Counted from the stretch's first letter, positions 13,626-57,380 are shown. The stretch is DNA of 60,275 nt from DHVE2 group archaeon (GCA_015521465.1 WAOD01000062.1:1-60275); one strand, 5' to 3'. The notes: generated by a model from the sequence alone, not told the origin. Translations and numbers: made by a program.

Positions 13626-16600
13626 ATGAACAGAAGGAATTGGAAGAGAATTATGTTAGTAAGTATAGTGCTATTAGCAGTGATTATCAGTGGCTTTTCA
13701 GCGATGACGCATGCAATGGCTCCTCAGCCAACAACAAAGGCTGGTGGGGTTTTAAAAATTGCAATGCAGCAAGATATGCCAAATTTCAACTACTTTGACT
13801 TGACCAGTAATACTGTGTGGAAAAGTAATGTCATTGGCTGGAATTTTGAAAGCTTGATAGGTATGGATTACGACGGGAAGGCGTATCCCTTGCTTGCGAA
13901 GAGCTATCAGTTTTATCCAAATAACTACACCGTGATTATACATCTGAGGGAAAACGTGACTTTCCAGGATGGTCAGCCACTTACGGCAAATGATGTGATA
14001 TTCTCGTACTGCGCCGAAAGGCAGGGAACTACTGTTTCAGGTACTTCTTTCACGGTGCCTTTCGATGATAATAATGACGGTGTCGTTAGCTATTCTGAAA
14101 TAAAGAACCATGTAATATACATAAACAAGTACACGGTTAAGATAGTTGCAAGGCAGCCGTACAACTACTTCTTCTTGGGAACGCTGGGTATTCCAATAAT
14201 ACCTGAGCACATATGGAAGAACCACTTGGTCAGTCCTGATGGCAGTGCGGTGTCTGTTGATTCGCATGGGTATACTAATGGAATACTTGATACTTCTTGG
14301 AATACCGATCCTAAAGCAACCATAGGAACTGGTCCCTGGATGTATGCTGGTGGTGTTAAAGATTCATACAGAATAGAGAAACCCTATCAGGGATATTGGG
14401 GTAAGAATTTCAAGACTCCTGATGGTTATCCACTCTGGAGCAAGAACGTTACAGAGATGGATTTCAAGATATACTCTAATTTGGATACGGCGGTATTAGC
14501 TCTGCAAACTGGTGACGTGGACTATATTGCTTGGTCCATTCAGCCGGGGAAGGTTCCAATTTTGAAGCAGGATCCGAACATCAAGCTTCACTATATGGCA
14601 GATAATGGTTATTTCTACCTTGCGTTTAACGAGAAGCAGTACCCTGCTAATTACATAGCGTTCAGGCATGCGGTATCTCATGTTATTGATAAGCAGACTG
14701 CTGTGCAGAGGTACCTTGGTGGCTTTGGTAGGGCTGGAGACTCTGTGGAGCCCCCCTTCCTTAGTGCTTGGTACAACGCTTCTGTGCAGCACTATCCTTA
14801 CAGTTTGTCTACTGCAAAGAAGATTCTGGATGGCCAATTGGTCCAGGCGGATAACGGATTCATAGAGCAGAATCCTGCATGGGGTGAGAAATTTGTGGAT
14901 GTCAATGGCGATGGTTGGAGGGATTTGCCTGATGGTTCTCCGATGCCTCCAATAACGCTGTTTACACCTCCTGCAGATTATGATCCTGTGAGAATCAAGG
15001 TTGGGCAGGGTATTGCATCCAATCTGAGAAGCATTGGGGTCAATATTCAGGCAAAGCCTGTGGACTTTGATACCTTGGTTGCATATATGCAGTCCTACAA
15101 CTATATCATGCTGGAGCTTGGCTGGTCTCTCGGTACTGATGCAATAGGAAACGTTCAGGATATATTTGGTCCGCATTCCATGCAGAATACATGGGGCTGG
15201 TGGAACGCTAGCAGTCCTAATCCATTTTACGTGAATGCTGGTGGTGTCAAAAACACTCGTGCGGATAAGATGTCTCAGGACTATGCAACTTTGTTTTCCA
15301 AGGTTATAAACAAGGCGGCCACTACCTTTAATACCACAAAGCAGATCAAGTATACAAAGTGGGCGCAGGATATCATTGCAAAGGCAACGGTGGTTAATGT
15401 TCTGTATTATAGGCTCAATATAGAAGCAACCCGCAAGTCCTGGTCTGGATGGGTTGAGTGGCAAGGCTCCGTCTTCAACGGTTTCTCTTTGGCTGAGCTT
15501 CATAAGGGATCTATTGGTGGCGGTGGCGTAGCACCCCCAACACCTGGTGAGAAGTCGATGGGTGTTTCTCTTAATGTGCCCGGCAGAGTTCTGGTAAATG
15601 GTAACGGGACAGGTAGTGTGTATGTTATGGATAGCAATGGAATTCCTCTCAAGGGTGCTAAGGTAACCCTTAAGTCTTCCAATACAACACTTTTGACTTT
15701 GATGCAAAGCGGAGGCACCACCAATGCAAATGGGGTGTATACCTTTAAGTTCAAAGGAGTAAATACTGGATTTGCGCAGGTTAAAGTATCGGTGAGTGCT
15801 AATGGCTATCCTGTGGTTAACAAGACGGCTACAATTGAGGTTGTGAACAAAGTCATGCATGTACTTTCTGCAACAGTGACTGCTGATAAGCTATCTTTAT
15901 CTCCAGGCGCGCAGACGAAGGTAACTGTCCATGTGGTTGATCAGGATGGTAAAAATGTCAGTGGTGTGACTGTTTCTGTGGATAAGAATCTGGTTGGTTA
16001 TGGTACTTTGGATAAATACACAGGCACCACTGATGCAAACGGGGATATAACCTTCACATATACTGCGCCATCTGCGGAGGATATGAATAAGCTCTTTGTC
16101 AACATGCATACTATTGGTAAGCTGGTGTTTACTATCTCTAAGCCAGGATATGCGCACAGCAACACTCCTGTTCTGCAGTTAATAACCTACAATACTAATC
16201 CTAGCATATGGGACATTGTGCGTGTCACTTCTGCTACAAATTGGACAGTGAATGCTACGAGCTTGTCCACGGACATAACCATTAAGGCTATTGGTGTAGA
16301 TGGTTCAGCACTAAACGATACTGTAGTGGATATTAGTTACTCAAATGCGACTTATCTTGCCGATGCTCCTGCAAACGTTACTACTGATTCCAATGGTATT
16401 GCTCATGTGCATTTGACATTTAACAAGGGTCTTTCAACAAAAGTGGTAATTGTGAAATTCCACATACCATCTATACACTCTATAGATGATGCAGCTGATA
16501 TTCTCTACTGGAATGGTAGTGTGGGTGTACCTCTTTATGGAGGTCATATATCCGCAGATCCTTTCATGGTTGGTGCAGACAACATTAATTACACCGTGGA

Positions 16601-18302
16601 GCTCTATAACCAGACTAATCAGCATCCAATTGGCACCCAAACAATCGGTACGGTCCTTGCAGACTCCCCTGACGGAGCACTCGGGGATCTTGCATCTGGT
16701 CCTGCGTTTGATACTGCGTGGGAGTATGTGGGTATAAACGTGTATGCAAATTACAGTGATACCTCTCTTGGATTGCCTGGTGAGTGGAATGGTGTTGCTG
16801 ATAATACAAAGACTACTGTGAATTGGCTCGATTGGGGCTTTAACGCCACGGCAGCTTGGGGTGTTCCAAATAAAGAGACTACATATCAGTACATAAAGTG
16901 GTTCTATGGTATGGATATGGAGCCAATGAAGGTTGTTAACGGTACCGGGAACTTCGTGATTACAAGGGATCAGAGTTCTTACAGGGATCTTGTGGAGAGT
17001 CTGTATGTAGTAACAGGAGGAATTACATACTATGTTACCAATCCTGCAGTAAATGCATTTGTCATGTATGGGAACCAGGGCTTCCAGACTCAGATTGGCT
17101 TCCACAGGGCAATGAAGATACTGGTTGAGAATGTGAATATTGATCCGATGGTCACCCCAGGACATCAGTTCTCTGTTACGGCAACTGTCTTTGATCAGAA
17201 TAATACCCCTGTACCTAATGTGGTGGTTAGTGCATATAACAACGCTATAAAGAGCAAGGCCAAGTTCCCTGCTGTTACAGGAACTACCGATAAGAATGGT
17301 GTGGCTACTATGACTCCTACTGCGCCTGCGATTTCTTCTGCTTCTGAACTGACTGTCTATGTGAAGGCAAAGGGTGATTCTACTACTTACTCTGTGCTGG
17401 AGGGAACACAGATTGCAGTGTTGCCGCCATACATATTCATGACCGTAACTCCGCTTGTAAATGGTGCAACACTCGGAGACAAGGTTGCGTTTGATGTCTA
17501 TGTGACAGATTCCAGTGGGGCTCCTGTATCTGGTGTCTCTGTATCTGCAGCACCTACTATGGGGAATGCAACCACTGCCGGTGAGACTGCCGCCAATGGC
17601 CATGCAACCTTTGTGCTGGATACATCTACAATAGATCCTTCAATGGTGTCAACAAATGTGTTCTCTGTTTCTGTGACTGTGACTGGTCTTAAGAGTGGAT
17701 ACAGTCCTGTGTCTGCTACAACGGGTACAGTGATTGTGAAGGGATACCCACCGATACTGTCTATTGGCTTGGTCAATAATGCAAATGTATTTGCTGGTAA
17801 GAATAACATAAGTGGGTATGTTTATTCTACAGGTAATGTCAGTGTTCAGGTAAGCGTTGATGGAAGCACCCCTGCAAGTGCAACTTTGACAAAGGTTGGC
17901 GATGTAGTATACATGGGTAAACTCTTCCATAAGTACAAGTGGACATATTCTACCGATCTCAAGAGTGGTATGCACAATATAACCGTTACTGCGGTGGCTA
18001 GCGGTGGTGCAACTACGACACAGACCGTAGAAGTTAATGCCGCATCCAGTGCACCAGGCACGGCACCTAGCAATCCTGGTGGTGGAGCTGTAGTTGTCGG
18101 TGGCGTTGACATGTGGTTGATACTCTCAATAATACTGATACTCATCATAATTGTGATGGGTGCAATGCTTGCAAAGAAGGGCGGCAGTGGAACCAGTGTC
18201 CCTAAGGAAGAGCCAGTGGAAGAAGAGGAATCTGAAGAGGAAGAAGAGACTCCTGAGGAAGAAGAGACTCCCGAGGAAGAAGAGGGAGGTGAAGAACTAT
18301 AA
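13626..18302 (+). CDS. oppA: Giant family-5 (OppA/DppA-type) peptide-binding protein fused to a long Ig-like stalk, a TM anchor and an acidic tail
   Basis: Signal anchor. SBP_5-type N-terminal ~600 aa ('LAKSYQFYPNNYTVIIHLRENVTFQDGQPLTANDVIFSY'). Then ~850 aa of repeated 'VTV.V.D.NG.P..G..V' Ig-like modules. The TM is 'MWLILSIILILIIIVMGAML'. The tail is 'EEPVEEEESEEEEETPEEEETPEEEEGGEEL'. Confidence 0.85.
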   Translation: MNRRNWKRIMLVSIVLLAVIISGFSAMTHAMAPQPTTKAGGVLKIAMQQDMPNFNYFDLTSNTVWKSNVIGWNFESLIGMDYDGKAYPLLAKSYQFYPNNYTVIIHLRENVTFQDGQPLTANDVIFSYCAERQGTTVSGTSFTVPFDDNNDGVVSYSEIKNHVIYINKYTVKIVARQPYNYFFLGTLGIPIIPEHIWKNHLVSPDGSAVSVDSHGYTNGILDTSWNTDPKATIGTGPWMYAGGVKDSYRIEKPYQGYWGKNFKTPDGYPLWSKNVTEMDFKIYSNLDTAVLALQTGDVDYIAWSIQPGKVPILKQDPNIKLHYMADNGYFYLAFNEKQYPANYIAFRHAVSHVIDKQTAVQRYLGGFGRAGDSVEPPFLSAWYNASVQHYPYSLSTAKKILDGQLVQADNGFIEQNPAWGEKFVDVNGDGWRDLPDGSPMPPITLFTPPADYDPVRIKVGQGIASNLRSIGVNIQAKPVDFDTLVAYMQSYNYIMLELGWSLGTDAIGNVQDIFGPHSMQNTWGWWNASSPNPFYVNAGGVKNTRADKMSQDYATLFSKVINKAATTFNTTKQIKYTKWAQDIIAKATVVNVLYYRLNIEATRKSWSGWVEWQGSVFNGFSLAELHKGSIGGGGVAPPTPGEKSMGVSLNVPGRVLVNGNGTGSVYVMDSNGIPLKGAKVTLKSSNTTLLTLMQSGGTTNANGVYTFKFKGVNTGFAQVKVSVSANGYPVVNKTATIEVVNKVMHVLSATVTADKLSLSPGAQTKVTVHVVDQDGKNVSGVTVSVDKNLVGYGTLDKYTGTTDANGDITFTYTAPSAEDMNKLFVNMHTIGKLVFTISKPGYAHSNTPVLQLITYNTNPSIWDIVRVTSATNWTVNATSLSTDITIKAIGVDGSALNDTVVDISYSNATYLADAPANVTTDSNGIAHVHLTFNKGLSTKVVIVKFHIPSIHSIDDAADILYWNGSVGVPLYGGHISADPFMVGADNINYTVELYNQTNQHPIGTQTIGTVLADSPDGALGDLASGPAFDTAWEYVGINVYANYSDTSLGLPGEWNGVADNTKTTVNWLDWGFNATAAWGVPNKETTYQYIKWFYGMDMEPMKVVNGTGNFVITRDQSSYRDLVESLYVVTGGITYYVTNPAVNAFVMYGNQGFQTQIGFHRAMKILVENVNIDPMVTPGHQFSVTATVFDQNNTPVPNVVVSAYNNAIKSKAKFPAVTGTTDKNGVATMTPTAPAISSASELTVYVKAKGDSTTYSVLEGTQIAVLPPYIFMTVTPLVNGATLGDKVAFDVYVTDSSGAPVSGVSVSAAPTMGNATTAGETAANGHATFVLDTSTIDPSMVSTNVFSVSVTVTGLKSGYSPVSATTGTVIVKGYPPILSIGLVNNANVFAGKNNISGYVYSTGNVSVQVSVDGSTPASATLTKVGDVVYMGKLFHKYKWTYSTDLKSGMHNITVTAVASGGATTTQTVEVNAASSAPGTAPSNPGGGAVVVGGVDMWLILSIILILIIIVMGAMLAKKGGSGTSVPKEEPVEEEESEEEEETPEEEETPEEEEGGEEL

Positions 18303-33505: not shown

Positions 33506-36500
33506 TTAATTCTGTTTTTTTGCATCTTTTATTGAATTTGGCAGATTTATTATAAAAATGCTTCCCCTTGGCTTGTTATCTGCCACTTCTATCGTTCCCC
33601 CATGGAGCTCGATGATCTTTTTGACAATGGCCAACCCGAGCCCGGAGCCCCTCTTGGAAATCCTTTCAAATGCCTCGAAAATTATTTCTTTTTTCCCCTC
33701 AGAAATTCCTATACCGTCATCTGCTACCTTTATCTCTACATTTCCATTTTCAGAGTTTATTGTTACCATAACCACTTTTGCTCCATACTTGTATGCATTG
33801 TCCAGAAGATTTACGAAGACCTCTTCTATTATAGGATATGCGTCTATTTCAGTTTCTCCTTTTACTATGATCTTGCTTTTTGGATATTTATCTCTTATCA
33901 ATCCGTACGCTTTCTCCACAATTTCTCTAATGTTCATTCTTTCAATTTCCTGGTGTATTTTTTTCATGTCCAGCTTGGAGAACAGCCTTGCCCTCTCAAT
34001 TATTTTCACGCTGTTATCAAGGGCGTTTTTTATTTCATCTAAATACTCCTCTTTGCATTCATCTTTCAGAAGTTCGGTGTATCCCTCTATAACGGCAAGC
34101 GGGTTTTTAAGGTCATGGCTTACTATGTGGAGCATGAGTTCCTGTAAATTTTTTGAGGATTCCAGCTCTTTTTGATACAGAATGCTGTCGATAGTTGCTC
34201 CCATGTGGGATGCAAGCATGTCTATCATCATCTTCTCCTCGGTGGCAATTCCTTTTTCTGCAATTCTGCTCACCGTCATAACTGCATATACTTTTCCCCT
34301 GGCAATGATTGGAATCGCATAGGTGCTTTCTATTTTCCCGGTATTTTCAATATATTTTTCGTCGTAATATGATTTGGTCTTTTCCCATGCCAATTTTATG
34401 ATTTCCAGATTGTTGTTATTTTCCTCGGATTCCTTTGCATTCTCATTTCTTGTGGATTCAATATGATTTTCTCTCGTTTCTATTCTGACCCGGGCGAAAT
34501 GCAGTATGGAATTGATTCCGTTTGAAACTATTTTAAAAACCTCATCCACATTTTTTGCATTTTTGATTTCCCGGGCAATTCTCTCCAGTGCGATAATTGT
34601 ATCCTCTGTCTCTTTTATGTGCGTTATGTCTGTCACGCTACCCATTACCGCAATTTTTCCCTCCCAATCAATTTTGGACACCTTGACTTCGCACCAAATA
34701 GCATTGCCTCTTTTTGTTATTAGCTGTGCTATGTAGTTGTTTGGAGCAGGTAGATCTCTGAGTCTGCTGTCATAAAATACCAGTATCATTTTAACATAGT
34801 GCGGGTGTATGAATTTATCAACCCTTTCGCCTATTATCTCCACCAGCTCGTAACCTAACATCCTTGCCATTTCTCTATTGGCATATACGATTCTCTTGTC
34901 CTGAATTATGGCTATTCCCGTAGCAACATTTTCAAAAAGTATCTTGTATTTTTCTCGCTCATTTTTTATTCTCTCCTCCATCTTCTTTCTCTCGGTGATG
35001 TCCAATATAATTCCAACAGTTCCCACCACTTCTCCTTTTATGCTCTTGATTGGTGAGGCGTAAATGAGTACCTGTATAATTGTTCCATCTTTTTTCACAA
35101 ATTCCGATTCGTAAGAATCTGATATGGATGCGAGTCTCCTCTTTGTCCCTTCTTCTATGTCTTTAAACCCCTTTTCAGTGGTGAAATTTTTAAGATGCTT
35201 TCCAATCATTTCTTCTGGTTTGTAGCCGAGCATGTCTGCAAAATCTTCATTTACAAATTTGAACACCATATCTCTGTCCGTGGTAGCCATGCCCACTATA
35301 TTTGTGTTCACGATTGAGCTGTATAGCTCCTCCCTGACTTTTAGCTCTGCGTACATCTCAGCGTTTGCTATGACCATTGCGAAGTTATCCGAGACTATGC
35401 GGAGAATTCTCAGGTCCCGCTCCGTAAAAGCGTTATCTTCCTTGCTCTGCACACTTAACACGCCAAACGTTTTGCCGTGGTATTTCAGCGGGATACCGAC
35501 CCAAGAGTTCATCATGGTGCCAACTTTTCGTATGTCCGCTGGTAAATTTCCGTTGTTAACTTTCTTCACGTAAAGCTCTTTTTCATGAGTTGCAACCCAC
35601 CCTGCAAGGGTGTCTTTATCGTTAAATGGTATGCTGTGCTTTTCGTATTTTTTTCCCTCGCCCACAACGAACTCAACATTTATCTTTTCTTTTTTATCGT
35701 CTATTAGCGCCACTAAAAACGCGTCCATTTTTGGAAGTATTTTTTTAAGTTCCAGGTATGCTGTTTCAAATATACTCTCTAAGTCAAGGGTGCTGGATAT
35801 TTTGTTTAAAAATTTGTAAAGAAACGTAAGTTCATCTTTTTCCCTTTCAAGCTCTTTCTCTCTTTCTACTCTGCTTGTTATATCCCTTGCAACTACTATA
35901 AAATTCCATTTTTTTCCTATTTTCACTTTTCCTATGCTCAGTTCCACCGGCATTTCCTGCCCATCTTTATTTTTAGCTAAAATTGTTATTAACTTACTTT
36001 TCCTATCCCATTTATCGGTTTCTATGTCTTCAAAGAACACTTTTTTGTATTCATCTACAAATTGTTCGGGAATTATTTTCCACACTGTATTTCCTAGTAT
36101 CTCATTTTTTTTGAAACCGAATATTCTCTCTGCACTGCTATTCCAGCTGGTAATTTTTCCCGCATCGTTTATTACCATAACAGCGTCCTGTATTGCTTCC
36201 TCCAGCGTTTTTTCAATTCTTATCTCTTCCTCCAGTGCAATTTCAGTCTGGAGAGCTTCCGTGATGTCTATCAAATTCACTAAAATCGTGTTTTTGAACG
36301 GTCTTGCCAGTGCAGTAACCCAAATCCAGCCATCTTTTGCTTTTATTTGTGTTATCATGCTTTCCTCTATGCCCCCGTCTCTGACTCTTTTAAGGAGTTC
36401 CTTCATTTTATCTTTGTCTTTGCATGGCAGGTATTTTAGGAAGTTAGTTCCAACAACCTCTTTTTCTTCAATCTTCCCCTTTTTTAAAACCTCGCTGTTA

Positions 36501-36589
36501 ACTTCTATTATTCGAAAATCGTGGTCAAGTATGGCTATACCAACGAAAGCCACGTTGCAGGCGTCGCAGAGCATATTTTTATTTACCAT
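33506..36589 (-). CDS. Cytoplasmic multi-PAS/GAF sensor histidine kinase
   Basis: H-box 'IVSHDLKNPLAVIEGY'. N-box 'NLLDNAYKYG'. 'DDGIGI'. 'GSGLGLAIVKKIIELHGG'. Several PAS-like 'DITERK/DITSRV' boundaries. No TM segment. Confidence 0.9.
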   Translation of the reverse strand: MVNKNMLCDACNVAFVGIAILDHDFRIIEVNSEVLKKGKIEEKEVVGTNFLKYLPCKDKDKMKELLKRVRDGGIEESMITQIKAKDGWIWVTALARPFKNTILVNLIDITEALQTEIALEEEIRIEKTLEEAIQDAVMVINDAGKITSWNSSAERIFGFKKNEILGNTVWKIIPEQFVDEYKKVFFEDIETDKWDRKSKLITILAKNKDGQEMPVELSIGKVKIGKKWNFIVVARDITSRVEREKELEREKDELTFLYKFLNKISSTLDLESIFETAYLELKKILPKMDAFLVALIDDKKEKINVEFVVGEGKKYEKHSIPFNDKDTLAGWVATHEKELYVKKVNNGNLPADIRKVGTMMNSWVGIPLKYHGKTFGVLSVQSKEDNAFTERDLRILRIVSDNFAMVIANAEMYAELKVREELYSSIVNTNIVGMATTDRDMVFKFVNEDFADMLGYKPEEMIGKHLKNFTTEKGFKDIEEGTKRRLASISDSYESEFVKKDGTIIQVLIYASPIKSIKGEVVGTVGIILDITERKKMEERIKNEREKYKILFENVATGIAIIQDKRIVYANREMARMLGYELVEIIGERVDKFIHPHYVKMILVFYDSRLRDLPAPNNYIAQLITKRGNAIWCEVKVSKIDWEGKIAVMGSVTDITHIKETEDTIIALERIAREIKNAKNVDEVFKIVSNGINSILHFARVRIETRENHIESTRNENAKESEENNNNLEIIKLAWEKTKSYYDEKYIENTGKIESTYAIPIIARGKVYAVMTVSRIAEKGIATEEKMMIDMLASHMGATIDSILYQKELESSKNLQELMLHIVSHDLKNPLAVIEGYTELLKDECKEEYLDEIKNALDNSVKIIERARLFSKLDMKKIHQEIERMNIREIVEKAYGLIRDKYPKSKIIVKGETEIDAYPIIEEVFVNLLDNAYKYGAKVVMVTINSENGNVEIKVADDGIGISEGKKEIIFEAFERISKRGSGLGLAIVKKIIELHGGTIEVADNKPRGSIFIINLPNSIKDAKKQN

Positions 36590-45974: not shown

Positions 45975-46339
45975 TTGTGCGGGGTAAAGTGATATATCCA
46001 GGGGTAGCAAAGGGAAAAGCAGTTAAATGCGAAAAGCCAGTGGTTATCCTCGGGGACGTGGACGCAAAAAAAGGCACTGTGGAAGGATGCGGTAATGTGA
46101 AGAACAAAATTCTTGTTTTTCCCCGGGGTGCAGGAAGCACGGTTGCTTCATACACTATCTACGCGCTTAGATATTACAACACAGCTCCAGCTGGTATAAT
46201 AGTTGAAAATGCCGAGCCAATTGTGGTGGCAGGCTCAATAATAGCGGAGATACCAACGGTGGATGGCATAGACCTATCATTAATAAAGTCGGGTATGTTG
46301 GTGAAAATAGAGAATGACAGGGTGATAATTCCTGATTAA
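45971..46339 (+). CDS. Aconitase-X swivel subunit (DUF126); candidate phosphomevalonate dehydratase small subunit
   Basis: 122 aa. 'ILVFPRGAGSTVASYTIY', 'AGIIVENAEPIVVAGSIIAEIP'. ATGA overlap with the large subunit. Confidence 0.7.
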   Translation: MIVRGKVIYPGVAKGKAVKCEKPVVILGDVDAKKGTVEGCGNVKNKILVFPRGAGSTVASYTIYALRYYNTAPAGIIVENAEPIVVAGSIIAEIPTVDGIDLSLIKSGMLVKIENDRVIIPD

Positions 46340-49300
46340 AGCTTTCCATCAACCGTTTCCTTCAGTTTTTCTATTTCTTTGTCATCTTCCAATTCTTCAA
46401 CGTTAAACAGCATTATAGCGTTCGCTTTCTGTATTTCCTCTTTTATCTCCTTTATAAAGTCGTTTATAGTATCAAAACCGTTTATTGCCACCATGAAGTC
46501 AAATGCATCCCACATTACTATTTTTGCACCTTTTGCCAGGTTCTTTATTATTGCATCTTTCAGGCTTTCAAGGTCCTTTGGCTTGATATTCTTGCCCATC
46601 GGCACGTAAGATATCCATATTACCGAGGTGTTTTTCAGGTTGTACTCTTTTTTTACAGTGTCTGGATCTTCCTTTGTTATAAGCACTTTCTTTTCGTCTT
46701 TGTAGGAGGATGTGACTATGGAGGCAACCTTGGAGAAATCACCCCAGGCAAGGTAAATTTTGCCTTCCGAAATTCCCTCTTTCTTTTCCATCTCAACTCT
46801 TATCGGTGCACCACAATGTGGACAAAAATCGTCGTCTTCGCTCAGCTCTGTTCCGCAGAACGGGCACACATTTTTTCCATTCTCTTTTTTCGGTTTAAAT
46901 GCCGTGGAAAACAGGTACTCTTTTATTTTGTTGGCAAAGCTCATTGAGAAGCCAGGTATCTCAGCCAGGTCCGTTGGCGATGCTTGCATCAACTCGTAAA
47001 CGCTTCCGTACCCCATTTGGAACAGCGTTTCTGCTTTGTTCTCTGCAATTCCCGGGATGCTCATAAATGCCTTTATGACCCACTTTTTAAAAAGAGGATT
47101 TATTCCTATAATCACGTCAAAATCCATTATTGGCCACTCTATAACGTAAGCGTATTCCACGTATTCAAAATCCACATTTCTTGCTCGTGTTCTCTCTTTT
47201 ATTTCATCGGTGTATCCCTTTAAAATACGGAGTATGTAGTTGTCAGAGGATATGCTGACATCTATAACATCGTCGTAATCCATGTTTATATCTTTACGCA
47301 TGTAGTTTATGCGCCTTATAACCTCGTTTACCATCCTTATACGCATGGTGGTAATATCTCTTTCAGTGTTGAAGTATAAGTCTCCGTACTTGGATTCCCT
47401 TTTCACGTATCCTTTAGGAACTTTCTCTATAAATTTAACCATGTCCGGGGTGATGCGCACCACGAACCCTTCTATGCCCATGGTATAGCCGCCTACGTTC
47501 AGTGCGTTCATAACATCTTTTATATTTTTGCGTTTCAGCAAATACGCTATTTTTGGGGCCCATGAACGGTACATTCTGTTAATTGCTTCAACATCCGGTT
47601 CGATGATAACGTCCATTTCTTCCCATTTTTCAGTGGGATAAAACACGAGAACGTTTGTAAATCTCATAATTATCTCTGAGAACTCTTTTAACATCTCTGC
47701 TTTTTCCGATACAAATACCACCTTTTTTAAGGGCTCTCTACGGGGAATTCCCCTTTCCTTTCTGAATTTCATGATTTGTCTAATAATACTCCTGACAATT
47801 TCCATTCCCTTTACTTCCAAAACCTCTGTTGTTTCAATTTTTATTGTCTCAGCGTTCATTTTAGATAGGAATTCTTCGCTAAATTCCTGGTCAAATACCA
47901 AAAACATTCTAAGTGCGTCTAATATTGGCTCTTCTAAAATGGATTCTTTTCTTCTCATGCTTACGTAAAATCTGGAAATGTCTTTCACGGCAAAATTGTA
48001 AAGTAAGTGAAAAGCATCTTTGAAGTTCCCGTTATTTGCTCTGGAAATAAAACCCCTTTTTACCTGTTCTGTTCTGTATAGCATCCAGTTATCAATTATG
48101 TCTCTGGGTTCAGATTTTCCGTATATTTCTATGTACTTTTTGAGATTTTCCAGTACGTTTTTTAGTTTTCTAATTTTGGTGGCGTTGTCCCCAACTTTAC
48201 CCCTGTTCTTGAGCATGTAGAGTACTTGTTCAACATCCTCTTCTGGGTATTTGCTGCGAATTATATATGTGTAATCGGAAATCTTCTTGTTATTTGCTTT
48301 TAAGAACTCGTTAATGATTTTATATTTTTGCCTTTTCTCATGAAGGAATGCCACGCCTTCTCCGCTACCCATGCTGTAATAAGCGCCTACCGTAATGAAT
48401 GATGGGTTGTAAAAAAATGGTCTCTCCATAACATTTCCACAAATTGGACAGTTTTTGACCTGTTCATCTCCGTGCTCAAAGTGACCGCATGAGTTACAGT
48501 ACAGTATGGGCATCCGGTACGCTCCGCCGTCCGCTGAAATTTCAATGTTTATTTTTTCGTCTTTTAGGTGCAGCTTGGGTATATTCACCTCCTTTAATAC
48601 ATCACCGCACTTGGGGCACACCAATCTCTTTACTTTGAATGTGACAGAGTATATGACGGAATATGAAGAAATCCTCTTTTTAAGGTTGTATTCGTCCACA
48701 TCTCTTTTAGTGAGATACCCCGTGTGATAGTTTCCCACTGCAACGTATTTAACAATTTTGATATTTTTTGATATATCTCCAAACTTCCCGGTCATAATTT
48801 CCTGCTCGGGTACTTCTATTTTGTTTATCAGCACATCTTTCATGTCTGCTGGAGCAATCCAGATCTCATTGCCCATTTGCACGTATATTAAATCCTCATT
48901 GTCGCTTATGGCCAATCCTACTGGATCATACCCTTTCTTTATTTTATCTATGAAGTACAACCTGCGTCCAATTCGAACTCTCACGATGTTGTAGACCTCA
49001 TCTATTTCCTCCTCTTTAACTTCATCTTTGGAGTAATGGGTGTTGCACCTCCTGCAGTAATAACTTTTTCTGGTGACAATTCTCAATTTACCATCTTTGT
49101 ACAGCTCCCCTATCAAATTGTCAAGCTCACCTATATACTCTTCCGCTTTTATTATATTGAAATCTCCATCTATTTTTTTTATTACCTCGTAATCCTCGTC
49201 TCTAATCCCGTATGTAACCACGTTTACGTTTACGTCTTCCCCTAATATTCTTTTGAATCTTTTATAGGTGGAGTAATGAACAAACTCATCAATTTCTTCT

Positions 49301-49356
49301 TTTGTCACTTTGTTTTCAATGGGATACGTGAATATTTGCCCACTCATACTAATCAT
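46336..49356 (-). CDS. Class-Ia aaRS-like (IleRS-like) paralog without HIGH/KMSKS, fused to HhH, a double zinc ribbon and a DUF835/KaiC-like C-terminal domain
   Basis: Anticodon-binding-domain signature 'DNWMLYRTEQV....FKDAFHLLYNFAVKDISRFYVSMRR'. IleRS-type C-terminal segments 'IVRSIIRQIMKFRKERGIPRREPL' and 'MVNEVIRRINYMRKDINMDYDDVI'. Several CxxC ribbons. 'IPGIAENKAETLF...LAEIPGFSMSFANKI'. 'CPFCGTELSEDDDFCPHCG'. Confidence 0.6.
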   Translation of the reverse strand: MISMSGQIFTYPIENKVTKEEIDEFVHYSTYKRFKRILGEDVNVNVVTYGIRDEDYEVIKKIDGDFNIIKAEEYIGELDNLIGELYKDGKLRIVTRKSYYCRRCNTHYSKDEVKEEEIDEVYNIVRVRIGRRLYFIDKIKKGYDPVGLAISDNEDLIYVQMGNEIWIAPADMKDVLINKIEVPEQEIMTGKFGDISKNIKIVKYVAVGNYHTGYLTKRDVDEYNLKKRISSYSVIYSVTFKVKRLVCPKCGDVLKEVNIPKLHLKDEKINIEISADGGAYRMPILYCNSCGHFEHGDEQVKNCPICGNVMERPFFYNPSFITVGAYYSMGSGEGVAFLHEKRQKYKIINEFLKANNKKISDYTYIIRSKYPEEDVEQVLYMLKNRGKVGDNATKIRKLKNVLENLKKYIEIYGKSEPRDIIDNWMLYRTEQVKRGFISRANNGNFKDAFHLLYNFAVKDISRFYVSMRRKESILEEPILDALRMFLVFDQEFSEEFLSKMNAETIKIETTEVLEVKGMEIVRSIIRQIMKFRKERGIPRREPLKKVVFVSEKAEMLKEFSEIIMRFTNVLVFYPTEKWEEMDVIIEPDVEAINRMYRSWAPKIAYLLKRKNIKDVMNALNVGGYTMGIEGFVVRITPDMVKFIEKVPKGYVKRESKYGDLYFNTERDITTMRIRMVNEVIRRINYMRKDINMDYDDVIDVSISSDNYILRILKGYTDEIKERTRARNVDFEYVEYAYVIEWPIMDFDVIIGINPLFKKWVIKAFMSIPGIAENKAETLFQMGYGSVYELMQASPTDLAEIPGFSMSFANKIKEYLFSTAFKPKKENGKNVCPFCGTELSEDDDFCPHCGAPIRVEMEKKEGISEGKIYLAWGDFSKVASIVTSSYKDEKKVLITKEDPDTVKKEYNLKNTSVIWISYVPMGKNIKPKDLESLKDAIIKNLAKGAKIVMWDAFDFMVAINGFDTINDFIKEIKEEIQKANAIMLFNVEELEDDKEIEKLKETVDGKL

Positions 49357-51427: not shown

Positions 51428-51450
51428 TCATTTGAATTTAGCATACCAAA

Positions 51451-51535
51451 GCGGGGGTTCCCGAGCATGGCCAAAGGGGCCGGACTTAAGATCCGGTTCC
51501 GAAGGGATTCGTGGGTTCAAATCCCACCCCCCGCA
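51451..51535 (+). tRNA. tRNA-Leu (anticodon TAA), long variable arm
   Basis: Acceptor GCGGGGG/CCCCCGC. Anticodon stem CCGGA/TCCGG with loop CTTAAGA. T-arm GTGGG-TTCAAAT-CCCAC. 85 nt. Confidence 0.9.
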
Positions 51536-51637
51536 CTTTTACTTGAGTTTTACAATTATTAGCAAATTTACTATTTTCTGCTATTTTATTATTAATTTAC
51601 TATCAAGATGTCTTATACTTTGGATGCAAAATCAAAG

Positions 51638-51724
51638 TGGCGCCGAGGGGGAGATTCGAACTCCCGAGTCCTCGCGGACAGTGGATCTCGAATCCACCGC
51701 CTTGCCTGGCTAGGCTACCTCGGC
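51638..51724 (-). tRNA. tRNA-Ser (anticodon CGA), CCA encoded
   Basis: The reverse complement reads GCCGAGG...GTGGA-TTCGAGA-TCCAC, variable arm TGTCCGCGAGGACTC, GGGAG-TTCGAAT-CTCCC, CCTCGGC-G-CCA. Confidence 0.9.
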
Positions 51725-51755: not shown

Positions 51756-51882
51756 TTTTTCTCTAACATGCATACTAAATAATTTTTATTATAAAATCAT
51801 CGTTGAGAATCTCCGTCTTTTGATGCAGCGTTGTAAAGAATATCTCCTCAAATCTTATATAGTAAATTGTACATTGTATCTT

Positions 51883-54800
51883 ATGAAGTGGAGTGCATTT
51901 GTTATCGTAATTATGGTGATTTTAAGCATATTTACGGGTATTCTTATCAACACCTTTAACGGTGAAAGTGTGCATAGGAGCATTCAATCACTTTCGTCAT
52001 CTATTGAAACCCTTGATACGGTCAGGGCAACTCCCCATCTTGACTGGAATGGAAGCTTTCCATATAATGTGCAGGCACTACCATTCGTAATGCATGGAAA
52101 GGTAAATGTTACTGCAGTAGGCGATGTAAATGGTGATGGGAAGGTTGATGTAATATTTTCATCCACTGATGATGATAAGATTTTCGTGTATTTCAACAGA
52201 GGGGAATATACCAGCGTTTTTCCATCGCTTGTTCTCAACGATTCCGATGGTATAAATGAACCGGTTGATGTTTCGGTGGTAGATGGTCTTCTTGCGGTTG
52301 CATCCCATGTAACAACGTTGTCTCCTCCCACTGAAACTGATACCGTGAAGTTGTATAATTTGACAAGTGGAAAAATCATATCTTTAAAACCCCCTACTGG
52401 AGCGACTGGTGTTGATTATGAGATAACTTCCCTTGCAGTGGGTGATTTTAATGGGGATGGAAAGGAAGATATAGCTGCGGCATTTTCTGTAAATGGTTCG
52501 TTATCCACTACACAGAAAAGTAAGATAGATATCTATTTCTCGCCGTTTACAGATAATCAGAGTGCCAATGAGACTATTTCTGTGGATTGGAATATTGAGA
52601 AAATTACCGCCGGTAATTTCAGGACTGTGGGCGAAAAAGATATTGCTGCGGTGGTGAATAATAGAACCGACGTGCTGGTATTCTATCCGGATTCATCAGG
52701 TGATTTTAGCTCAAATGATTATTCTGAGCATCCCGTTAATTACACCACGACTATTTGCGCTCATGATTTGAATAATGATGGAATAGATGAGTTGATAGTT
52801 GGCGATTCAGGTACGGGTAATGTTAGCATTTATCACGCTAATGACGGAAGCGATTTGCCAGAGTATCCTTCTTTAAATATAACCGAAGATTCTGGGGTGA
52901 GTGCAATAGCGGTTGGTAATTTTAATCCGGATGCATATCCTGATATTGTAGTGGCCAGAAAGGATGTGCTTGTGGATGGCCATGATGTTCCATTGTACCT
53001 GAGAATTTACGATGGCCCTTGGAATTTTAATGGAGGAAGTATTAATGCCCCTAGTAGAACCATATTTGCAGGATACAATGTTTTGGACATGAAGGTGGCA
53101 GATATAAACGGTGACGGAATGGACGACCTAATAACTTGCGATTACGGGGGGTTTAACGATTACCCCTCCGTGCCATATGTTCTGTATCAGCGAGATGGGT
53201 ATCTGAAGGGTATTGCGGACGAATCATTGTACGGGGGACTTCTTCCCAGTGGTGTTGCAATAGGTGATATAAACGGTGATTCTCTAAATGATATTGTTGT
53301 TGCCCAAACTAAGGCAAACAAAACAGGCGTTTTTCTAAATGATGGATACGGATTTCCACGGTTCTACTCTACAGTTAACAATACTCCCGGGAATCCGGGC
53401 TTTGTTGCACTATCCAACATATCCAATGCGTACCGTGATGATATTGTTGTCAGCCACCTTTCTGATGGGAATTTAACTTTATACAGCACCAGTGGAAATA
53501 TTCTCACATTAAGAACGTATATGAACACAACTTACATGGTGATGTTTGGTGACACGCGCAATGAAAATGAAAGTGATATACTTGTTAATTCTCTTACTAA
53601 CCCCGAGATTGATATATTTTTAGGAGATGGTTTTTCTAATGATAGTCTTCCGCAGGTTAGAGTTCCACTATTCAATGTTTCTCGTGATTTTTCACTCATT
53701 AGTGTTATGGGAGAGCGTTATCCAGAACTTGTTGTAATGTACTCCACAAACATTACCATATATAAGCAGAATACCGTAAGCAATTTTACACCTGAGGAAG
53801 TAATACCCAATCCTTCCGGTTACAATGGTGCAGCGATTGCAGTGGGTGATTTCAATGGTGATGGAAAGGATGACCTTCTTGCAATCTACAACAGTAACAC
53901 TTCTTTTAAGTCTATGTATGCTATTTACTCTCAAAATGAGGATACCATTCAGAATGCTTCATATATTTCTGGAAACTTAACAGGAAGAGTAAGAAGCGTT
54001 ACTGTGGGTGATTTCAACGACGATGGTGTTCCTGATTTTGCAGTGGTGACAAATTACAATATGGTTGTAGTTGCCTACAATGATGAAAGTGTTTTCAATT
54101 ACGACTACTTTGCGACTGATCCAAATCCCGTGTATATAGCTTCTGGTGATGTCAATGGTGATGGAAAGGAAGACATAGTCGTTTCAGCTGATAGTCCCGT
54201 GTACGATGCTTTACCAAGAGAAGTGGATATGGTGGATGTTTACTACCAGAAAGATACAAAACCCGTTGCAAATATTTCTGGGCCTCAGGAAATCTACGAA
54301 GGCCATTACCTGAATCTAAGTGCTGAGAATTCCACGGATACCTTATCCGATATATCTTCCCTGAATTACACATGGTACGTTAAGAATGGAAGTGAGTGGT
54401 CTTTTGTTTCATATGGTGTGAATCTCTCATACTTTGTGAAAACTCAAGGCAATTATACATTCATGGTAGTTGTTAAGGATAAAGAGGGTTTAAGTGATAA
54501 TGCAACCAAAAATGTTACTGTTCTTGATACAGTTCCTGTGGTTAATTTTACATACTACAACGCTGTTGAGGGACAAAACACAACGTTTCATGCAAACATA
54601 AGCGCGTATGATGGTGTTGACGAAATCAAGTGGGACATGAACGGTGATGGGATGTGGGATTTTTATAATACAACATGGGTAAACTACACATATAAGGAGA
54701 ATGGAACGTATCACGTTAATCTTACCGTAATTGATGGTGATGGGAGCGTAGGATATGTGAACAAGACGGTATTTATAAAAGACACAGTTCCCACGTGCAA

Positions 54801-56583
54801 TTTCTCATATTCCCCCAAAGTTATATACGAGGGTGAAGTGGTTAGTTTTACTGCTTCTTGGAGCTCTTACGACCCCGTGGTAAACTGGACATGGTATATC
54901 TCGAATAATGTTTTGTACGGTAAAAATATAAATTATACATTTCAGGAGAACGGTACCTACACGGTAACTCTTCAGGTTAGAGACAGTGACGGTTCTGTGG
55001 CAAACTCATCTAAAAAACTTGTTGTTCTGGACACGCAACCCATAGTGAACTTCACTTATAGCCCTCAAGTGGTTTACGAGGGTGAAAGCGTTAATTTCAC
55101 TGCGCATGTTGAGTCATACGATGAAATAAAGTCGTATTTCTGGGATTTTGGAGATGGTAATTACTCCACAGATAAGAATCCCACCCATGTTTTTAATGAA
55201 AATGGAACATATACCGTTACTTTGTATGTAACTGATGCTGATGGCTCCAATGTTAGTGCCTCCAAGGTAATTGTGGTCAAAAATGTAAAACCCTCGGTTA
55301 CTCTTGCCTATACCAATGCCGTAGAGGGAGAGAACACCACATTTTACGTAAATATAACATCTTATGATGGGATTAAGTACGTGGTTCTTTATTTTGGGGA
55401 CGGAAAGAAGGTGAATATCACAAATCCTCCAAATCACCTGAAAATATACCATGTGTACGTTAGAAATGGCAGCTATGAAGCAAGTGTTTTTGTGAAGACT
55501 CTTAACGGCGATCAGGCAAGCAGTGCTATAACCGTTGTGGTAGAGGATACATTACCAAAAGTGGTTCTTAGAGTGATAGGTTCAAGTGTTGTCAAAGAAG
55601 ACGAACGGGTGTGGCTCAGTGCAAATGGAACCACTGCTTACGATGGAATAAAAGAGTATTTATGGGATTTTAACTATATGAACAACCATTTCACTGCTGA
55701 TAAATCTACCGAGGTTCCATATACTTTCACAAGTTTCCCGGAGCGGGGCAATTATACTGTTGCTGTGATGGTGATTGATGGCGATGGCTCAGGAGCTCTT
55801 GGATTTGCGAAGATAACCGTGGTGAACGTTCCTCCTGTGGCTAATTTTACGTATAATATATCTTATAATGTGGTTTATGTTGATGGCTCTCACTCATATG
55901 ATACCCCGTCTGACAAGGCATCTTTGATTTACATGTGGAACTTTGGAGATGGCTCCCATGTTGTGTATGGTATGACCGCAGAGCATGAATACAAGAAACC
56001 GGGAAAGTATGTGATAACGCTAATTGTTAAGGATAATGATGGAGTAGAAAGTAAAATGAGCAAGGTTATTGAAATAAAAACAGTACCCGTAACAAACGGT
56101 GGTACTGCAGACAAAACACTGGGCTTAATTCTACTTATACTCATTCCTATAATTGGAGGACTTTTAGCAGTTCTTATATACATGCGAGGAAAACAGGCAA
56201 TCATAGATGATGTGTACCTCATATCTGATTCTGGGTTGCTTATACACCATTCTACGAGAAGATTGAAACCTGATATGGATGAGGATGTGCTATCCAGCAT
56301 GTTAGTTGCCATACAGGAATTTGTTAAAGATGCCTTCAAAGGAGAGACCGATGTATCGCTCAAGAGCATGGACTTTGGAAACAAGAAGATACAGATTCAC
56401 CGGGGCAAGCATCTGTTTCTTGCAGTTGTGAGCAACAGGGACGTACCCAAGAAACTTGCAGGGAAAATATCCTCAATCCTAAATGAGATAGAGGAGAAGT
56501 ACGGGAAAGTTTTGGAGAACTGGGATGGAGACGTGTCTGCGTTCAGGGGTGTAGAGGAGATTCTTAAAAAGATATGGGAATGA
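51883..56583 (+). CDS. Giant type-I membrane protein: FG-GAP/VCBS beta-propeller repeats, ~8 PKD modules, one TM, and a cytoplasmic Roadblock/LC7-like domain
   Basis: Nine 'GD.NGDG..D' calcium-loop repeats. PKD signatures 'WDFGDGNYSTDKNPTHVFNENGTYTVTLYVTDADG' and 'WNFGDGSHVV...HEYKKPGKYVITLIVKDNDG'. TM 'LGLILLILIPIIGGLLAVLIY'. The 133-aa tail starts 'DDVYLISDSGLLIHH'. Start set at the ATG before the signal anchor; the ORF is open from 51820. Confidence 0.8.
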   Translation: MKWSAFVIVIMVILSIFTGILINTFNGESVHRSIQSLSSSIETLDTVRATPHLDWNGSFPYNVQALPFVMHGKVNVTAVGDVNGDGKVDVIFSSTDDDKIFVYFNRGEYTSVFPSLVLNDSDGINEPVDVSVVDGLLAVASHVTTLSPPTETDTVKLYNLTSGKIISLKPPTGATGVDYEITSLAVGDFNGDGKEDIAAAFSVNGSLSTTQKSKIDIYFSPFTDNQSANETISVDWNIEKITAGNFRTVGEKDIAAVVNNRTDVLVFYPDSSGDFSSNDYSEHPVNYTTTICAHDLNNDGIDELIVGDSGTGNVSIYHANDGSDLPEYPSLNITEDSGVSAIAVGNFNPDAYPDIVVARKDVLVDGHDVPLYLRIYDGPWNFNGGSINAPSRTIFAGYNVLDMKVADINGDGMDDLITCDYGGFNDYPSVPYVLYQRDGYLKGIADESLYGGLLPSGVAIGDINGDSLNDIVVAQTKANKTGVFLNDGYGFPRFYSTVNNTPGNPGFVALSNISNAYRDDIVVSHLSDGNLTLYSTSGNILTLRTYMNTTYMVMFGDTRNENESDILVNSLTNPEIDIFLGDGFSNDSLPQVRVPLFNVSRDFSLISVMGERYPELVVMYSTNITIYKQNTVSNFTPEEVIPNPSGYNGAAIAVGDFNGDGKDDLLAIYNSNTSFKSMYAIYSQNEDTIQNASYISGNLTGRVRSVTVGDFNDDGVPDFAVVTNYNMVVVAYNDESVFNYDYFATDPNPVYIASGDVNGDGKEDIVVSADSPVYDALPREVDMVDVYYQKDTKPVANISGPQEIYEGHYLNLSAENSTDTLSDISSLNYTWYVKNGSEWSFVSYGVNLSYFVKTQGNYTFMVVVKDKEGLSDNATKNVTVLDTVPVVNFTYYNAVEGQNTTFHANISAYDGVDEIKWDMNGDGMWDFYNTTWVNYTYKENGTYHVNLTVIDGDGSVGYVNKTVFIKDTVPTCNFSYSPKVIYEGEVVSFTASWSSYDPVVNWTWYISNNVLYGKNINYTFQENGTYTVTLQVRDSDGSVANSSKKLVVLDTQPIVNFTYSPQVVYEGESVNFTAHVESYDEIKSYFWDFGDGNYSTDKNPTHVFNENGTYTVTLYVTDADGSNVSASKVIVVKNVKPSVTLAYTNAVEGENTTFYVNITSYDGIKYVVLYFGDGKKVNITNPPNHLKIYHVYVRNGSYEASVFVKTLNGDQASSAITVVVEDTLPKVVLRVIGSSVVKEDERVWLSANGTTAYDGIKEYLWDFNYMNNHFTADKSTEVPYTFTSFPERGNYTVAVMVIDGDGSGALGFAKITVVNVPPVANFTYNISYNVVYVDGSHSYDTPSDKASLIYMWNFGDGSHVVYGMTAEHEYKKPGKYVITLIVKDNDGVESKMSKVIEIKTVPVTNGGTADKTLGLILLILIPIIGGLLAVLIYMRGKQAIIDDVYLISDSGLLIHHSTRRLKPDMDEDVLSSMLVAIQEFVKDAFKGETDVSLKSMDFGNKKIQIHRGKHLFLAVVSNRDVPKKLAGKISSILNEIEEKYGKVLENWDGDVSAFRGVEEILKKIWE

Positions 56584-56585
56584 GT

Positions 56586-57380
56586 TTATCTTACTTTTCT
56601 AAGTATTTTTAGTCTTTTTAATTTCAACTCCCTTGCTTCTTCGTCGCCCTTGAAAGATCTTTCCACTTCTTCCAATAAGTCTATGAATTTTTTAACAGAG
56701 TCGTAGTCCGGAGTATGTATGTTTACTCCAGCTTTTTCTGCCTGTTTTCTCACAATGGGCATTGCATCGTTTATATCTCCGTAATTTATCGAGAAATCAT
56801 ATATGATATAGTCCAGGGCGTCTTTTACAGTTCTTACCTCCTTGGATTGCTTATTTTCTTTGCCAGTTGCGATGTTCATGCCAAGCATGTGCTCTGCAAG
56901 CTTTCTAAAGGCCAGCTCAACATTTTCCCCTGTTTTGGCACTCGTCAAAAAATACTCCATATTGTACTTTTCAGCCAGTAGCCTCAAATCATCCTCTTGT
57001 ACTTCCCAGTTATCCAAGTCACTTTTATTTCCCAGTAAAATTAGAGGAATTCCAGGGGCTATTTTGTACAGCTGGGGAATCCAGTATCCTTCAATGGATT
57101 CTAAAGTACTTCGTCTGGTAACGTCCACGACCATGAAGGCGCCTTCTGCACCTTTGAACGATGCCCATTGTACCCTTTCGTATCCTTTCTGACCAAGGAT
57201 GTCCCATATCATAAGCGTTACTTCTGAGTCTCCGATTACCATGCTCTTTTTAGATACTCTTGTACCTATTGTTGCAATATACTTTTCATTAAATTTGTTC
57301 AGGACAAATCGATTTATAAGTGATGTTTTACCCACACCCCCATCTCCCAAAAGAACCATTTTCTTTTTGAGCAGTTTCAT
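56586..57380 (-). CDS. Ras-superfamily (Rab/Ras-like) small GTPase with a ~95-aa C-terminal extension
   Basis: G1 'GDGGVGKTS'. G2 'IATIGT'. G3 'WDILGQ'. G4 'GNKSD'. G5 'TSAK'. Confidence 0.85.
   Translation of the reverse strand: MKLLKKKMVLLGDGGVGKTSLINRFVLNKFNEKYIATIGTRVSKKSMVIGDSEVTLMIWDILGQKGYERVQWASFKGAEGAFMVVDVTRRSTLESIEGYWIPQLYKIAPGIPLILLGNKSDLDNWEVQEDDLRLLAEKYNMEYFLTSAKTGENVELAFRKLAEHMLGMNIATGKENKQSKEVRTVKDALDYIIYDFSINYGDINDAMPIVRKQAEKAGVNIHTPDYDSVKKFIDLLEEVERSFKGDEEARELKLKRLKILRKVR

Follow-up and report, generated by a model that had tools for sequence, protein, structure and literature searches.

A longin-type cytoplasmic tail of archaeal surface receptors and its gene linkage to a Rab-like GTPase in Thermoplasmatota

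We analyzed a stretch of 60,275 nucleotides from a DHVE2 group archaeon (GCA_015521465.1 WAOD01000062.1:1-60275; the whole stretch is referred to below as the window), in which the gene for a large single-pass surface receptor lies beside the gene for a Rab-like small GTPase. By its modelled structure, the tail of this receptor is a member of the Roadblock/longin fold group with longin topology. Homologs of the tail form a family thousands strong, and genes encoding them recur beside genes for relatives of the GTPase; this gene linkage is real but asymmetric. On balance, we lean towards reading the tail as a longin platform close to the membrane, which would dock or regulate the neighbouring GTPase. 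The parts of the two genes are as follows, with the support for each in brackets.

51883..56583, + strand: receptor gene, 1566 amino acids plus stop (open reading frame list, Pfam)
51883..51957, + strand: hydrophobic N-terminal signal peptide or anchor, MKWSAFVIVIMVILSIFTGILINTF (hydropathy scan)
52099..54282, + strand: FG-GAP/VCBS repeat region, residues 73-800 (Pfam, motif positions, self-profile search)
54247..56085, + strand: seven tandem PKD modules forming a stalk, residues 789-1401 (Pfam PKD_4, self-profile search)
56119..56184, + strand: single transmembrane helix, LGLILLILIPIIGGLLAVLIYM, residues 1413-1434 (hydropathy scan)
56185..56580, + strand: predicted cytoplasmic longin-type domain, 132 amino acids (AlphaFold2, Foldseek, family signature)
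56871..57380, - strand: G domain of the GTPase, residues 1-170 (Pfam Ras 3.9e-41, motif alignment, PDB matches)
56586..56870, - strand: C-terminal extension of the GTPase, residues 171-264 plus stop (homologous extensions, alignment)

The hydrophobic N-terminus, the single transmembrane helix and the residues RGK directly after it, which agree with the positive-inside rule, indicate a type-I topology, and this would place the 132-residue tail in the cytoplasm. The initial annotation, made from the sequence alone, had proposed one transmembrane helix and a 133-residue tail starting at 56182. The helix was found, ending by hydropathy at nucleotide 56184 instead of 56181, and the C-terminal tail is present, but its length and start are corrected to 132 residues at 56185-56580.

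The same annotation had fitted the tail to the Roadblock/LC7/MglB pattern, and structural similarity to Roadblock, longin or MglB folds had been set beforehand as the test of this fit. A single-sequence AlphaFold2 model of the tail was of moderate quality, with a predicted local distance difference test score (pLDDT) of 72, while the model built with a 38-sequence alignment was confident (pLDDT 90.1, predicted template modelling score 0.85). When either model was searched against the PDB with Foldseek, the best 50 matches all belonged to the longin/Roadblock group, and most of the best matches listed are GTPase partners. The best superposition was with the longin domain of Sec22b (1ifq), with a template modelling score (TM-score) of 0.73-0.76 and a root-mean-square deviation (rmsd) of 2.6 A over 125-129 columns, followed by the AP sigma subunits (0.58-0.66) and Mon1-Ccz1 bound to Ypt7 (5ldd; 0.60). 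MglB, dynein Roadblock and the LAMTOR and Rag C-terminal domains could be aligned only partially, with TM-scores of 0.33-0.56 overall and 0.33-0.46 for MglB and Roadblock; for MglB, the TM-score was about 0.45 and the rmsd 7-8 A over the full MglB length, with a Foldseek E-value of 3e-5.

In the model, the secondary structure elements follow the order β-β-α-β-β-β-α-α (strands E7-14, E19-24, E59-64, E67-73 and E77-83; helices H33-50, H89-111 and H117-130). The first strand begins about 5 residues past the transmembrane helix, and the tail has no N-terminal helix and two to three C-terminal ones. The Roadblock order α-β-β-α-β-β-β, with its N-terminal packing helix, is thus not matched; as two C-terminal helices replace the N-terminal one, the arrangement is that of a longin domain and not of a Roadblock domain. 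Placement in the Roadblock/longin fold group therefore stands, whereas membership in the Roadblock/LC7 family itself does not. The specific identity PF03259 was considered and rejected, given the lack of an above-threshold match, the missing N-terminal helix and the poor superposition on MglB.

At the sequence level the family is hard to see. The tail matched no Pfam or NCBIfam model at threshold, its sole Pfam echo being Fuz_longin_1 with a non-significant E-value of 0.13, and phmmer against PDB sequences gave no match. As a word-indexed homolog search with the tail, or with its alignment, returned only one relative, the family came to light only in an exhaustive HMMER search: among 1.84 billion cluster representatives (50% identity), it comprises 3664 representatives at a threshold of E<=1e-3, of which 1355 pass E<=1e-10. 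Look-ups of the clusters gave no informative names. Sub-threshold matches to Robl_LC7 were seen in 5 of 38 family members (best E-value 0.0088) and to Fuz_longin_1 in 3 of 38 (best 0.037). With the family profile, the Roadblock C-terminal domain of Gtr1 and CvnB5 ranked first among PDB sequences, at E-values of about 0.3, and hhalign comparisons with the Sec22b longin domain (E-value 0.29) and with LAMTOR2 were not significant, the two sequences compared being approximate. The signature derived from 305 sequences reads F..G.L..H..R..D..M..A.Q.F..D.F..L..FG..G..A..G..E..L..W.G..G., and the tail of the window retains all but two of its positions. All 80 of the 80 genome loci retrieved for the family are from Thermoplasmatota, namely DHVE2/Aciduliprofundum, Methanomassiliicoccales and other metagenome-assembled Thermoplasmata genomes, with the closest loci from DHVE2; the locus scan relied on a narrower alignment, the broader one being too divergent.

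Judged from its architectures, the tail domain serves as the cytoplasmic part of a wide range of surface and membrane proteins in Thermoplasmatota. Most commonly, a large secreted-type protein has the domain of about 130 residues at its C-terminal end, within some 20-30 residues of a preceding transmembrane helix, and the ectodomains joined to it include NosD/β-helix with fn3, invasin-type Ig, FG-GAP with Big_9, PKD with CBM56, and DUF11. The domain is also found after multi-transmembrane segments, in short proteins of 150-300 residues that consist of a transmembrane segment and the tail, in four-helix membrane proteins carrying two tandem tails, and in proteins of 1000-2400 residues with two or three tails together with CARDB and DUF5915. 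Finally, it occurs inserted in soluble STAND ATPase/TPR proteins, so the domain is not confined to membrane proteins. In one such protein, adjoining a GTPase gene (L143 938-4066), Pfam places an AAA_16 (STAND ATPase) region N-terminal to the insertion; a second (L108 6747-10001) was grouped with it by cluster homology. A conserved adjacent pair, comprising a DUF11 receptor of about 620 residues and a transmembrane-plus-tail protein of about 190 residues, is found in five loci (L001, L032, L043, L046 and L048), all without a GTPase. Together with the tandem tails (two to three copies), this pair suggests that the working unit is a dimer.

Two other genes of the window touch on these architectures. 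At 127-2298 (+ strand) lies a 723-residue NosD/β-helix and fn3 surface protein without a tail, of an ectodomain type that bears the tail in other genomes (P0041). At 46336-49356 (- strand), a 1006-residue protein has aaRS-like parts (Anticodon_1 and DUF5915) together with a zinc ribbon and an HhH motif, and ends in a DUF835 domain. DUF5915 is the domain found in the proteins with two or three tails, and DUF835 is fused elsewhere to V4R beside homologs of the GTPase; the DUF5915, DUF835, V4R and tail domains may belong to one network.

The GTPase gene (56586-57380, - strand) is convergent with the receptor gene, with stop codons 2 nucleotides apart. As had been annotated, it is the sole small GTPase gene of the window, where only one Ras-like match was found; a second GTPase and a second tail-domain gene were also sought in the window, and none was found. 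The GTPase has a complete set of motifs from G1 to G5 (G1 GDGGVGKTS, T37/T40, G3 WDILGQ, G4 NKSD and G5 SAK), including the catalytic Gln of DxxGQ, and by these motifs looks functional. The closest solved structures are Rab7 and Rab11 (1.3e-29), with a Thorarchaeota Rab (7ezb) also scoring high. The C-terminal extension of about 95 residues, which has no match in Pfam, is helical and basic and closes with the basic stretch KLKRLKILRKVR; the protein ends in ...KRLKILRKVR, and the C-terminal prenylation Cys of eukaryotic Rabs is absent. Homologous extensions were found in four of the tail-centred loci (L002, L003, L078 and L077) and in 34 metagenome loci, with the conserved pattern D..I..DF....GD....M.IVR.Q and a terminal basic stretch that is possibly amphipathic. 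The basic C-terminal helix may aid membrane binding. This C-extended subfamily is large, and its members carry source names such as 'GTP-binding protein' and 'Rab family GTPase [Thermoplasmata archaeon]'.

Whether tail homologs co-occur with Rab-like GTPase genes in other genomes had been posed in the initial annotation as a check, and seen from the GTPase the linkage does recur. The 80 metagenome loci sampled each have one of the nearest relatives of the GTPase (35-52% identity) at their centre. A tail-domain gene is directly adjacent in 25 of the 80, nearly always on the same strand, and lies within 5 kb in 3 more; in five further loci, the adjoining receptor homolog runs off the contig end. 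Among the loci that extend 1 kb or more to each side, 15 of 38 (39%) have an adjacent tail gene. The two genes meet in at least six arrangements: a short transmembrane-plus-tail gene followed by the GTPase; three to four tail-bearing membrane proteins of differing size that precede the C-extended GTPase in the same orientation (L078 141-6419, L088 650-8703, L109 186-4876); the GTPase followed by a 1400-residue receptor; the GTPase followed by a 900-residue receptor; the GTPase beside a STAND ATPase/TPR protein into which a tail is inserted (L143, L108); and the convergent pair, as in the window. The convergent layout is shared by the DHVE2 orthologs L002, where only the receptor gene end is on the contig, and L003, and the pair is kept in L003, L162 and L169; in L162/L163 and L169, the GTPase is convergent with a 1550-residue FG-GAP/PKD tail receptor. 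On a Thermoplasmata chromosome (L166), a 2750-residue FG-GAP/laminin-G receptor with the tail is followed by the GTPase 23 nucleotides later on the same strand.

Starting from the domain architecture, fold class, family size and statistical gene linkage observed here, we propose how the favoured platform might work. Longin/Roadblock dimers act on small GTPases as guanine nucleotide exchange factors (GEFs; Mon1-Ccz1, DENN, TRAPP), as GTPase-activating proteins (GAPs; MglB, FLCN, GATOR1) and as scaffolds (Ragulator, SRX), and it is this known behaviour, together with the fold of the tail, the gene linkage and the tandem or paired tails, that leads us to the platform. The FG-GAP propeller region would stand outside the cell on the seven-PKD stalk, with one transmembrane helix and, about 5 residues later, the longin-type domain. 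The tail platform, probably a homo- or heterodimer like other longin/Roadblock platforms, would dock the Rab7/Rab11-like GTPase by direct binding or control its nucleotide state, so that receptor and GTPase switch would be coupled, with signals running either outside-in or inside-out. Within such a device, the tail could act as GEF, GAP, effector site or anchor, and the nearly invariant Arg after β2 might, speculatively, serve as a catalytic finger. Many receptors with a common tail would share a few GTPases, and the linkage would thus look different from the two sides.

Several findings weigh against this platform and need to be considered. Of 81 tail-centred loci, only five (L002, L003, L078, L077 and L069) have a gene for a Ras-like GTPase no more than 10 kb away, so a general linkage as seen from the tail was rejected; the co-occurrence asked about in the initial annotation thus holds on the GTPase side and is rare on the tail side. 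In Methanomassiliicoccales and other Thermoplasmata, receptors of about 1700 residues that share this tail sit among housekeeping genes with no GTPase nearby. From the GTPase side, about half of the well-flanked loci lack a tail gene, as do L164, L167/L168 and L170, and a close relative (L171) has an MMPL transporter in the place of the receptor. In seven GTPase-centred loci, the position of the tail gene directly after the GTPase is taken by a V4R and DUF835 protein, identified by Pfam in L084 and L132 and by cluster homology in the other five:

L082 2942-3790
L084 6903-7862 (Pfam)
L132 6327-7400 (Pfam)
L136 2170-2820
L148
L151
L152

In the window itself, the receptor and GTPase genes are convergent and not operonic, and thus not co-transcribed. 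No protein or open reading frame combining the tail with a G domain was found when sought, and no significant sequence-level match of the tail to any longin or Roadblock family was obtained in Pfam, NCBIfam or the PDB. Moreover, a longin domain need not regulate a GTPase, and several, those of Sec22b and Ykt6 among them, do not. It should also be noted that the binomial P value of the adjacency (about 4e-23 against a conservative 2% chance per locus) makes the evidence look stronger than it is, as the loci are phylogenetically non-independent; the variety of the arrangements is more telling than the P value.

Some of these points fit another explanation, in which the tail is an all-purpose module for clustering, anchoring or sorting surface proteins and the GTPase serves a subset of its carriers, for example in insertion or localisation as SRβ does with SRX, instead of being regulated by the receptor. 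Such a module would oligomerise receptors or link them to biogenesis machinery or a scaffold in the cytoplasm. The same tail is borne by very different ectodomains and also follows multi-transmembrane segments, 94% of the tail loci have no GTPase neighbour, and the best structural match is the longin domain of Sec22b, which is no GTPase regulator. We consider such a module unlikely, if worth serious thought, as it leaves unexplained why at least a third of the GTPase genes adjoin a tail gene, in many arrangements, and why the tail is inserted in soluble STAND/TPR proteins beside the GTPase. The two explanations partly overlap, docking being common to both. Alternatively, the adjacency in the window could be local synteny without functional meaning, as the separate promoters of the convergent genes, the L171 GTPase without an adjoining receptor and the many tail genes without a GTPase neighbour would allow. 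Yet the pair is kept in L162 and L169, where the outer flanking genes differ from those of the window on both sides, and independent co-directional adjacencies are seen in distant lineages (L078, L069, L166 and the 25 metagenome loci), which makes synteny of this kind improbable.

Longin, Roadblock, PAS and GAF domains have a common profilin-like α/β sandwich, and the tail could on these grounds be a cytoplasmic small-molecule sensor of that class, unrelated to GTPases, with the conserved His, Arg, Asp and Trp lining a pocket. However, no PAS or GAF protein is among the best 50 Foldseek matches listed, both are missing from the sub-threshold Pfam matches of the 38 family members, and the gene linkage to the GTPase would go unexplained; we thus regard a sensor as very improbable. 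Both the sensor and the synteny explanations agree poorly with the data.

Returning to the favoured platform, systems in which a small GTPase is paired with a longin or Roadblock protein are known, and comparison with them shows what is shared. Mon1-Ccz1 with Ypt7 likewise joins a longin-fold partner to a Rab7-like GTPase, and the GTPase of the window is nearest to Rab7/Rab11; the Fuz_longin_1 echo of the tail is to the first longin domain of MON1, and the tandem or paired tails recall the Mon1/Ccz1 heterodimer. Mon1-Ccz1 is, however, soluble and eukaryotic and has three longin domains per subunit, whereas here one longin domain follows the transmembrane helix of a receptor; the sequence similarity to the tail is not significant, and a GEF activity of the tail is putative. 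MglB-MglA is similar in that a prokaryotic small GTPase and a Roadblock/longin-fold domain are paired by gene neighbourhood, but MglB is soluble and follows the Roadblock order with an N-terminal helix, and the present GTPase differs from MglA in being Rab-like, with a canonical DxxGQ and the long C-terminal extension. Ragulator (LAMTOR) with Rag and SRα SRX with SRβ are membrane-attached Roadblock/longin-like platforms that hold a small GTPase at the membrane, and LAMTOR and Rag C-terminal domains are among the Foldseek matches of the tail. Unlike the tail, Ragulator is lipid-anchored via LAMTOR1 and built of Roadblock dimers, and neither it nor SRX/SRβ belongs to a receptor with an ectodomain.

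Among receptors, the α subunit of integrins has the same succession of FG-GAP Ca-loop propeller, Ig-like stalk, single transmembrane helix and cytoplasmic tail, but integrins have short tail peptides that bind talin and kindlin and require a β subunit; no beta-subunit-like gene for such pairing was seen. Plexins also are receptors that cross the membrane once, and they act directly on a small GTPase through their cytoplasmic domain, but that domain has a RasGAP fold. The resemblance to integrins and plexins is architectural only, with no sign of homologous signalling parts. Asgard archaea also combine Roadblock/longin proteins with Rag-, Arf- and Rab-like GTPases, as exemplified in the PDB by Prometheoarchaeum Roadblock2 (9jq8) and the Thorarchaeota Rab. 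To our knowledge, archaeal longin/Roadblock platforms have been discussed mainly for these lineages, as soluble, stand-alone proteins; the tail family is instead found in Thermoplasmatota, is fused to transmembrane proteins and was not recognised by existing models.

Against the domain libraries searched, three features appear new: the family is large and has no model, it is fused to single-pass receptors, and it occurs in Thermoplasmatota. It merits a model in domain databases. In eukaryotes, membrane traffic and nutrient signalling depend centrally on longin/Roadblock platforms controlling small GTPases, and here a family of thousands sets a longin-type domain directly under the membrane, as the tail of diverse Thermoplasmatota receptors. 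If the tail binds or regulates the GTPase, prokaryotes would possess a simple signalling device leading from a single-pass receptor to a GTPase, which would also offer a testable system for the origin of longin-Rab pairs. A bolder version, which we put forward only tentatively, is that Thermoplasmatota, a non-Asgard lineage, possess a widespread receptor-coupled GTPase system in which the shared longin tail is a Mon1-Ccz1-like GEF or GAP platform for the Rab7/Rab11-like GTPase, with V4R and DUF835 proteins as alternative partners. Such a system would be the equivalent in prokaryotes, perhaps even a relative, of the longin-Rab module of eukaryotes. From its position, the V4R and DUF835 protein does look like an alternative partner of the same GTPase family; V4R we take to be a prokaryotic relative of TRAPP Bet3. 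The tail and the GTPase are tractable, being small soluble domains and a canonical GTPase, and at least one archaeon of the DHVE2 group, Aciduliprofundum boonei, is in culture.

As to the rest of the receptor, the open reading frame list gives a + strand frame ending at 56583, with a TTG start at 51820 or an ATG start at 51883; the ATG start yields 1566 residues, which equals the length of the recorded NCBI product. Pfam matches FG-GAP_3 (9e-37, nine stretches) and FG-GAP (2e-31), and a self-profile search detects about 10 blade-like FG-GAP units in residues 73-800, with none in residues 490-640. Nine Ca-binding DxNxDGxxD loops accompany the repeats, and all nine motifs quoted in the initial annotation were found, at residues 79, 186, 296, 344, 405, 460, 654, 708 and 754. 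The annotated stalk of PKD modules was also recovered, with seven units instead of about eight, both by Pfam (PKD_4 9e-70 and PKD 8e-50, each with seven stretches) and by the self-profile search (residues 789-1401). A/T-rich, TATA-like boxes lie 5' of the gene at about 51750 and at 51783-51796. Just upstream are tRNA-Leu(TAA) (51451-51536, + strand) and tRNA-Ser(CGA) (51638-51724, - strand), and the open reading frame 51432-51713 that overlaps both is probably not a gene. Elsewhere in the window, 13626-18302 (+ strand) encodes a protein of 1558 residues, an unusual size for a solute-binding protein, in which a family-5 solute-binding domain is fused to Big_1, carboxypeptidase-regulatory and macroglobulin-like domains, and 33506-36589 (- strand) encodes a 1027-residue GAF/PAS histidine kinase.

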